Shown here one piece after another: positions 19,904 through 20,135 of a DNA stretch of 46,003 nucleotides. This stretch comes from a virus. Taxonomy: Duplodnaviria; Heunggongvirae; Uroviricota; Caudoviricetes. Position 1 is the first letter of the stretch; each line of letters begins with the position of its first letter. The translations under genes and the position numbers were made by a program. The stretch is from the IMG/VR virus record IMGVR_UViG_2562617057_000011, positions 1-46,003 of that record. One strand, 5' to 3'. A model generated the notes under the pieces. That model was not told the DNA's origin. It made no database searches and saw nothing but the letters and a program-made list of their open reading frames with translations.

Positions 19904-19979
19904 GGCCCTTTAGCTCAGTGGTGAGAGCGAGCGACTCATAATCGCCAGGTCGCTGGTTCAAGTCCAGCAAGGGCCACCA
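19904..19979 (+). tRNA. tRNA with anticodon CAT (Ile2-like, lysidine-type; Met not excluded), CCA encoded
   Basis: 76-nt cloverleaf folded by hand; very similar to E. coli ileX as recalled; anticodon loop CTCATAA. Confidence 0.85.
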
Positions 19980-19980
19980 A

Positions 19981-20054
19981 CCACCACTAGCTCATCCGGA
20001 TAGAGCATCAACCTTCTAAGTTGACGGTGCGAGGTTCGAGTCCTCGGTGGTGGG
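19981..20054 (+). tRNA. tRNA-Arg, anticodon TCT
   Basis: Cloverleaf with acceptor CCACCAC/GTGGTGG, anticodon loop CTTCTAA, T-loop TTCGAGT; no encoded CCA. Confidence 0.8.
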
Positions 20055-20059
20055 CCAGC

Positions 20060-20135
20060 GCCGACTTAGCTCAGCAGGCAGAGCAACTGACTTGTAATCA
20101 TCAGGTCACCAGTTCGATTCCGGTAGTCGGCACCA
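20060..20135 (+). tRNA. tRNA-Thr-like, anticodon TGT, with a weakened anticodon stem
   Basis: Near-identical to E. coli thrU as recalled, but the 3' anticodon-stem strand reads TCATC rather than TCAGT, leaving 3 base pairs; CCA encoded. Confidence 0.65.

Follow-up and report, generated by a model that had tools for sequence, protein, structure and literature searches.

A thrU-derived prophage tRNA-Thr(UGU) with a three-base-pair anticodon stem: a candidate nuclease-evading tRNA in a late-operon tRNA island

The IMG/VR record IMGVR_UViG_2562617057_000011 (46,003 nucleotides, analysed over its whole length and called the window below) represents a lambdoid prophage whose late, Q-dependent operon holds a cassette of four tRNA genes. 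The third of these, tRNA3, is a copy of the host gene thrU for tRNA-Thr(UGU), in which two adjacent base changes leave an anticodon stem of only three base pairs (bp). Judging from its sequence, we propose, at a probability of roughly 0.55, that tRNA3 is a minimal, host-derived and nuclease-evading tRNA-Thr(UGU) of the phage 21 kind, with a different and smaller set of changes. We infer that it resists cleavage, is expressed from the late transcript and retains decoding.

A thrU copy with a three-pair anticodon stem

Alignment of tRNA3 against thrU of CFT073 revealed identity at 72 of 76 positions. The four differences are U16C (20075) and U20C (20079) in the D-loop, and G42U (20101) and U43C (20102) in the 3' strand of the anticodon stem, where positions 39-43 read TCAGT in host thrU and TCATC in tRNA3. 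The original prediction, made from the sequence before any search, had given both pentamers correctly and recognized a near-identical thrU copy with an altered stem, but overlooked the two D-loop changes. Infernal marks the mismatches A27·C43 and C28·U42 at the top of the stem, which is thereby reduced from the canonical five pairs to U29-A41, G30-C40 and A31-U39; the three-pair stem that had been folded by hand thus held, as the tRNA predictors did not restore a 5-bp stem. Accordingly, the RF00005 bit score drops by 14.3, from 73.8 for host thrU to 59.5 for tRNA3.

Nearest-neighbour energies gave -4.3 kcal/mol for the anticodon stem of thrU and about 0 for the 3-bp remnant of tRNA3, in addition to a predicted -2.7 kcal/mol for a register-shifted 4-bp helix of tRNA3 (pairs 28-45, 29-44, 30-43 and 31-42). 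The comparison was confined to local stems because whole-tRNA free-energy folding prefers non-tRNA folds even for host thrU. Host thrU (L002:601-676) also has an A52·C62 mismatch in the T stem, shared by the phage copy, which makes a simple cloverleaf energy evaluation misleading.

Outside the stem, tRNA3 is well preserved. It keeps U8, A14, G18, G19, U33, the T-loop and the encoded CCA, with the anticodon loop and the acceptor end unchanged, and it is called by ARAGORN, Infernal and the Prokaryotic Genome Annotation Pipeline (PGAP); it therefore lacks the marks by which we recognize a pseudogene, namely lost conserved bases or 3' end and failure to be called. The UGU anticodon is retained together with G1-C72, C2-G71, G35 and U36, which we take to be identity elements of threonyl-tRNA synthetase. 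With the anticodon loop and these elements kept, tRNA3 could still be charged and read ACA.

The fourth gene, tRNA4, is identical to CFT073 glyT over all 75 positions. Both thrU and glyT belong to the host operon thrU-tyrU-glyT-thrT, in which they are neighbours, so tRNA3 and tRNA4, to judge by these identities, were copied from a single operon. The phage lacks the tyrU gene and the 116-nt spacer found there, and only 3 nt now separate the two copies.

Nuclease determinants at the changed positions

According to Govande et al. (NAR 2025, PMC12445682), P2-lambda interference is due to P2 OLD, which is lethal because it cleaves host tRNA-Thr(UGU) in the anticodon stem. The cuts fall after nt 28 and nt 40, both inside a paired C28-N-G30 / C40-N-G42 motif, and phage Thr(UGU) tRNAs rescue from OLD by standing in for the host tRNA that has been cleaved. 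Resistance requires an altered motif and a shorter stem together, either class of change failing alone; thus Thr6 combines G30C/C40G with U43A, and Thr21 combines C28U/G42A with a shorter stem (PMC12445682). A 2026 preprint independently reported that the HK446 tRNA is OLD-resistant, and gave the OLD-depleted tRNAs as Thr(UGU), Gly(UCC), fMet, Val(UAC) and Pro(UGG) (10.64898/2026.07.10.737580). The resistant phage Thr tRNAs left host tRNA-ThrU unprotected from OLD, and their mode of action is therefore replacement rather than competition (PMC12445682; 10.64898/2026.07.10.737580). In addition, tRNA-Thr(UGU) is among the prime targets of PARIS AriB, which cuts between C40 and A41 and has a proposed D-loop contact at U16-U17; U16C impairs AriB cleavage of tRNA-Lys (Belukhina et al., PMC12409363).

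Host thrU has C28-U29-G30 / C40-A41-G42 plus A37. OLD-family Toprim nucleases of competing elements, among them P2 OLD and PARIS AriB, halt lambdoid phages by cleaving host tRNA-Thr(UGU) within the anticodon stem, and we propose that the changes in tRNA3 would counter them at several points. G42U breaks up the 3'-strand C40-A41-G42 motif and leaves C28, the base before OLD cleavage site 1, unpaired, U43C abolishes the 27-43 pair at a position also mutated in Thr6, and U16C alters the proposed AriB contact in the D-loop. tRNA3 might then still be charged and reading ACA while the host tRNA-Thr(UGU) is destroyed. G42U and U43C amount to one change of each resistance class, motif alteration and stem shortening, the motif being altered on one strand only, with the 5' C28-U29-G30 unchanged. 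All four differences from thrU are at or next to positions that figure in the cleavage studies, U20C merely by its proximity in the D-loop.

Comparison with the known resistant tRNAs revealed both shared and distinct features. The Thr21 sequence is present in phage 21, HK446, Sf6, BTP1 and SPN9CC, the phage 21 copy being shared with HK446, Sf6, BTP1 and 30 other records. In phage 21 the gene directly follows Q, pR' and tR' and precedes the lysis genes, and its stem is GUCGC/GCGAA as published (PMC12445682). Similar to tRNA3, Thr21 is a UGU Thr tRNA of a temperate lambdoid or P22-like phage, encoded between Q/pR' and the lysis genes, with a shortened anticodon stem and an altered 28-42 pair. 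However, Thr21 departs from thrU at some 30 of its 76 positions and keeps 4 bp (a G27·A43 mismatch and a U28-A42 pair), whereas tRNA3 differs at four, keeps 3 bp with a C28·U42 mismatch, and is thrU-derived and not homologous to Thr21. Moreover, resistance has been shown experimentally for Thr21 and is predicted for tRNA3. Thr6 resembles tRNA3 in being close to thrU (12 differences), in a mutated position 43 that breaks the 27-43 pair and in having its resistance in the anticodon arm (PMC12445682), but alters G30C/C40G and keeps C28-G42, whereas tRNA3 alters G42 and keeps G30-C40. The T5 tRNA-Lys, tRNA-Thr and tRNA-Asn that neutralize PARIS AriB (PMC11464382, PMC12409363) share C16 in the D-loop with tRNA3, yet are changed at or next to C40|A41, where tRNA3 keeps U36-A-A-U-C-A41.

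Recurrence of the change and competing explanations

The G42U/U43C state is called UC below, and CC denotes the alternative 42/43 state of thrU-like phage copies. Exact-pattern scans found UC in 28 IMG/VR viral contigs and, among 5426 complete E. coli genomes, in 12 records exactly and in 19 more within one mismatch; the three of these 19 that were inspected all have UC plus one further change. Ten distinct UC alleles occur in at least seven island architectures: Ile2-Arg-Thr-Gly, Ile2-Lys-Thr-Gly, Thr-Gly, Ile2-Thr-Arg-Gly, Ile2-(Arg)-?-Thr-Arg(CCG)...Gly, Asn-Thr-Gly and Ile2-Arg-Thr-'Val'. Several genomes carry UC in two different prophages. A private or recent mutation, as sister islands with C16/C20 and a normal stem had suggested, was rejected, the allele being in many island types. 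Spread beyond E. coli was rejected as well, as the UC 30-mer had no match in 185,579 species-representative genomes. Nor is the change the remnant of a fully paired phage stem (GAUGA/UCAUC) half-converted by thrU, every thrU-like UC or CC allele having A27 C28; the metagenome matches with G27G28/C42C43 are unrelated tRNA-Thr genes, identical at only 45 to 55 of 76 nt.

To view the change against other variation, phage-borne copies were sampled via the thrU-TAT-glyT junction (n = 119), without selection on the anticodon arm. Host-identical copies number 69, and 22 have C16 and C20 together; C16 is found in 36 and C20 in 31. Counted as distinct alleles changed per position, the figures are ten for position 16, eight for position 20, six each for positions 42 and 43, and at most three for any other. 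Positions 42 and 43 change jointly every time (three UC and three CC alleles), never singly, and with no compensation at A27 C28. A rough binomial estimate, taking the pair as one event, gives P = 6e-5 for 42/43, which is optimistic given shared ancestry.

The most divergent UC lineage is that of the Asn-Thr-Gly islands, carried by phage JLK-2012 (L189:1495-1570), O55:H7 strains, the loci L142 and L144, and 17 IMG/VR loci. Its tRNA-Thr gene is a chimera, with nt 1-25 identical to Thr21 of phage 21 and nt 26-76 thrU-like with UC, and it follows an Asn tRNA that phage 21 has in identical form. The gene is not called by ARAGORN. Its acceptor and T stems stay paired through C3U, C6U, A49G and A5G, and in 14 loci a Watson-Crick pair is regained by U68C. 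Decay was considered as the source of A14C and the further changes in the D-arm of the Asn-type alleles, and was rejected because the D-arm, within the 25 nt identical to Thr21, comes from a functional tRNA.

Several observations weigh against nuclease evasion. With respect to tRNA3 itself, the 5' C28-U29-G30, C40 and the AriB site U36-A-A-U-C|A41 are all kept. The 3-bp stem is more extreme than that of any tested resistant tRNA and its remnant has no net predicted stability; decoding may be impaired, because anticodon stems other than 4 or 5 bp make up only 0.2% in a survey of 1.7 million bacterial tRNAs (PMC13092985). The neighbouring tRNA4 has no escape change; its stem of C28-A29-G30 / C40-U41-G42 plus A37, the same type of motif as in thrU, and the OLD depletion of its host counterpart Gly(UCC) speak in themselves for nuclease evasion. 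Most phage-borne thrU copies are host-identical and should be cleavable, and expressed E. coli Thr(UGU) gave no rescue (10.64898/2026.07.10.737580). With respect to the population, UC is rare: it was seen in about 3 of 80 to 120 IMG/VR copies sampled, and among the extra thrU copies of E. coli its share is no more than 2 to 3%. A single origin, followed by spread through recombination, may account for both UC and CC, which means that the recurrence counts cannot be treated as independent. Some UC alleles bear extra damage, either G24A or U12C, A58G and CCA to UCA together; PGAP or ARAGORN skip several, and some, such as that of L141, have the marks of a pseudogene. With respect to the nuclease, P2 old is present in 17 of the 5426 E. 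coli genomes, and no Gam-type trigger of OLD was found in this prophage, which is disrupted by an insertion sequence (IS). One of the 17 old-carrying genomes, VL7S7 (NZ_CM177009.1; old homologue at 96.8% nucleotide identity), also has a window-type prophage with UC, a co-occurrence observed once against about 0.1 expected by chance (P ~0.09), which is only suggestive of a link.

Many of these observations would fit a tolerated hypomorph or a decaying, redundant thrU copy under weak selection, an explanation we regard as rather unlikely but alive. The GT-to-TC change would then be neutral or mildly harmful, and may come from a short template switch with tRNA1 (...AATCGCCAGGTC), giving CC and then UC; the changed allele would have hitch-hiked and been shuffled among mosaic lambdoid prophages by recombination. 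The C42-C43-A44-G45-G46-U47-C48 segment of tRNA1 is a possible donor for the CC allele. The rarity of UC, its lack of matches among the species-representative genomes, the exact window-type segment in only six near-identical genomes, the IS-disrupted prophage, the unstable stem remnant, and the further damage and annotation losses of some UC alleles all favour this explanation. On the other hand, neutral changes should scatter, whereas 42/43 is hit in more distinct alleles than any other stem position and always as a pair, and the changed bases coincide with experimentally defined nuclease determinants. The damage is also not specific to UC, because non-UC alleles have a similar share of damaging changes (A22, A13, C8 and C23). 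Moreover, the other three tRNAs of the window are intact, and in UC alleles the remaining stems have kept their pairing, in one case through a compensatory double change. The original prediction had left tRNA3 as either non-functional or altered; altered is the better supported half, because the double change recurs in many island types and the OLD and PARIS studies (PMC12445682, PMC12409363) give a specific reason for it, while a non-functional tRNA3 is less likely but a live rival.

Alternatively, the island might be purely a codon-supply cassette, in which the shortened stem loosens decoding, an effect reported for 27-43 mutants and tRNAs with 4-bp stems, and thereby extends the range of ACN codons read by tRNA-Thr. 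The island does supply readers of AUA, AGA/AGG, ACA and GGA. In a comparison of the phage open reading frames (ORFs) against 50 kb of K-12 core genes, each codon read by the four tRNAs is more frequent in the phage (P<1e-3 throughout; values per 1000 codons): ATA 6.5 vs 3.5 (1.9x), AGA 7.1 vs 3.1 (2.3x), AGG 5.5 vs 1.2 (4.5x), ACA 13.9 vs 5.2 (2.7x) and GGA 13.2 vs 8.7 (1.5x). This agrees with the earlier view that the first two genes decode rare codons, and the enrichment gives a reason both for carrying such tRNA genes and for harm from the loss of tRNA-ThrU. A 4-bp anticodon stem lets E. coli tRNA-Trp read near-cognate codons (PMC13092985), and tRNA1 also has a 4-bp stem, invariant across islands. 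However, codon supply explains the thrU and glyT copies and leaves unexplained the two specific broken pairs in a minority of them; host-identical copies would serve equally well and are the majority, and it is hard to see what would be gained from relaxed decoding by a Thr tRNA. As a full account of tRNA3 we thus consider it improbable, although codon supply is compatible with nuclease evasion and does not exclude it.

The least probable explanation, to which we give very little credence, is an alternative fold or decoy, by which tRNA3 would be a sponge or competitive inhibitor of the nuclease, or have some other non-decoding role: the two substitutions create the shifted pairs C28-G45, U29-A44, G30-C43 and A31-U42, the resulting helix is predicted to be more stable than the canonical 3-bp stem and re-creates a paired CUG/CAG motif, and the PARIS study mentions that phage tRNAs might compete, but nearest-neighbour folding ignores tertiary contacts and modifications and mispredicts host thrU, the CC allele gains just one of the two shifted pairs, and the resistant phage Thr tRNAs did not protect the host tRNA from OLD.

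If the nuclease-evasion reading is true, tRNA3 would be the smallest natural escape variant known so far, a tRNA-Thr(UGU) that matches the host's in all else and owes its resistance to two neighbouring base changes. It would provide a natural test of the OLD-resistance rule that combines motif alteration with stem shortening, and set a limit on the shortest anticodon stem that still decodes. An anti-nuclease role, described for tRNAs of virulent phages and of phage 21, would then also apply to the thrU/glyT islands that are common in E. coli prophages. As these islands occupy the position of ileZ-argN-argO in Shiga toxin (Stx) phages, the reading of such islands as suppliers of rare-codon tRNAs may be incomplete. 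Should tRNA3 prove cleaved or inactive, the cassette would be an ordinary prophage tRNA island with one decaying member.

The tRNA island and its relatives

On a broader scale, we tentatively suggest that the tRNA islands between Q and the lysis genes of lambdoid prophages, including those of the Stx type, might be modular counter-defences against OLD-family Toprim tRNases as well as codon supplements, a possibility short of an even chance, and that they would evolve by four routes. The first would be the capture of host genes for nuclease targets, such as thrU and glyT from one operon; in the list of five OLD-depleted tRNAs, Thr(UGU) and Gly(UCC) come first. The second would be minimal stem-breaking escape mutations, of which G42U/U43C in the window may be the smallest natural example. 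Third, resistant and host-like tRNAs might be joined into chimeras, such as the one with a Thr21 5' part and a thrU 3' part. Finally, anticodons may be switched on nuclease-proof scaffolds (UCU, UUU and UGU on the argN-like scaffold; UGU, UUU and UCU on that of thrU). Across 190 related loci, the argN-like slot 2 has UCU in 25, UUU in 44 and UGU in one, and the thrU scaffold has UGU in 163, UUU in three and UCU in one. The Lys-type copies in slot 2 have C33 in place of the universal U33, and U73. Such switching echoes an Arg(UCU)/Thr(UGU) recruitment experiment reportedly made by Saks et al. in 1998. In sister islands, Lys(UUU) and Asn(GUU) tRNAs are found on non-host scaffolds with neither a CNG motif nor an AriB site, their positions 39-41 being unlike the latter; this resembles the T5 system and points towards nuclease evasion.

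Two further arrangements were seen among related loci. In strains with a window-type prophage, a second prophage has a glyT-scaffold gene with the anticodon UAC (a 'tRNA-Val'; L016 and L146:1560-1630), which bears A38G and lacks one base of the 3' acceptor strand; Val(UAC) is an OLD target, and this copy looks damaged. The jumbo phage BF17 (L190, 101-254) has two adjacent Thr(UGU) genes, host-like and escape-like side by side: one matches host thrU in full as far as the 3' end, and the other is divergent, with a stem of AUCGC/GCGAU and no CNG motif.

The island of the window spans 19904-20213 and consists of four tRNA genes on the + strand, separated by gaps of 1, 2 and 3 nt. The original prediction had described a three-tRNA island at 19904-20135; its calls for the first three genes agree with ARAGORN, RF00005 and RefSeq, whereas the Gly-UCC gene had been missed. 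All four genes score above the RF00005 gathering threshold of 29 bits, and a small-region search gave E-values of 1e-12 to 1e-16 for tRNA1 to tRNA3. The positions of these genes and of other features of the prophage are listed in the table.

Table. Features of the window and the evidence for each
Feature	Position	Strand	Evidence
tRNA1, tRNA-Ile2-like, anticodon CAU	19904..19979	+	ARAGORN; Rfam 71.2 bits, one non-standard pair; PGAP tRNA-Ile
tRNA2, tRNA-Arg (UCU), argN-like phage scaffold	19981..20057	+	ARAGORN; Rfam 56.4 bits, no non-standard pair
tRNA3, tRNA-Thr (UGU), host thrU copy	20060..20135	+	ARAGORN; Rfam 59.5 bits, two non-standard pairs
D-loop changes U16C, U20C in tRNA3	20075..20079	+	alignment with CFT073 thrU
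G42U/U43C dinucleotide change in tRNA3	20101..20102	+	alignment with CFT073 thrU
tRNA4, tRNA-Gly (UCC)	20139..20213	+	ARAGORN; Rfam 64.9 bits; 3 nt past tRNA3
Q-family antiterminator gene, start of the late operon holding the island	17110..17481	+	ORF; RefSeq 'antiterminator Q family protein' at L001:51-422
DNA methyltransferase gene, directly upstream of the island	18805..19863	+	RefSeq L001:1746-2804 mapped; ORF end at 19863
Class II holin gene, first of the lysis cassette downstream of the island	20895..21110	+	ORF end 21110; RefSeq 'class II holin family protein' L001:3835-4050
Lysozyme	21967-22500	+	ORF; RefSeq product names under 99.9% matches and on L001
Rz-like lysis protein	22482-22964	+	ORF; RefSeq product names under 99.9% matches and on L001
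isrK / C4 copies	11406-11482 / 11507-11594; 11775-11850 / 11867-11957; 12428-12504 / 12529-12615		Rfam

tRNA1 is identical to K-12 ileX at 69 of 76 positions, with a compensated change of C6-G67 to U6-A67 and a change of G27·U43 to A27·C43. The resulting mismatch, which leaves a 4-bp anticodon stem, is invariant in all ten islands aligned and is thus a fixed feature there. tRNA2 has fully paired stems, with A20 and G73. Stx2 phages have an annotated ileZ-argN pair, with which tRNA1 and tRNA2 share about 91% identity. These comparisons bear out the earlier assignments of an Ile-CAU-like and an argN-type Arg-UCU tRNA and the likeness drawn to the tRNA position of Stx phages.

Window positions 17060-20887 differ by two mismatches from a prophage of E. 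coli CFSAN029787 (locus L001), and six complete genomes contain a 5-kb window-type segment at 99% identity or more. RefSeq gives the order in the CFSAN029787 prophage as Q antiterminator, small ORFs, DNA methyltransferase, tRNA-Ile, tRNA-Arg, tRNA-Thr, tRNA-Gly, class II holin, lysozyme and lysis protein, so the annotation of this near-identical prophage sustains the placement of tightly packed tRNA genes between the methyltransferase and the lysis genes. Q, the island and the holin gene share the + strand, with the island between Q and the lysis genes. A scan for promoters and terminators around the island gave no signal above background, with no clear promoter directly upstream. The ileZ-argN-argO cassette of Stx phages (933W type) lies on the same strand and in the same place, after Q and ahead of the lysis genes, but its third gene is argO, where the window has the thrU copy followed by the glyT copy; moreover, the RefSeq annotation has nothing stx-like downstream of the window island.

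The early-left operon of the window is interrupted at 4550-5706 by an IS3-family element, whose transposase has rve and HTH_Tnp_1 domains. No Red or Gam genes were found in the prophage, which, given this absence and the IS3 interruption, may be defective. An ORF for a ParE-like toxin is located at 6222-6440 on the minus strand.

Two observations concern other small RNAs (sRNAs). In the related prophage of E. coli SHP24, an STnc100 sRNA (140.8 bits, L141:2013-2223) sits just downstream of the tRNA island; the window itself has no STnc100 match. Between 11406 and 12615, the window has three tandem modules of isrK, an Hfq-binding sRNA, and C4 antisense RNA, all above the Rfam gathering thresholds. 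The unit is the immunity RNA of the P1/P7 type, and its triplication is unusual.

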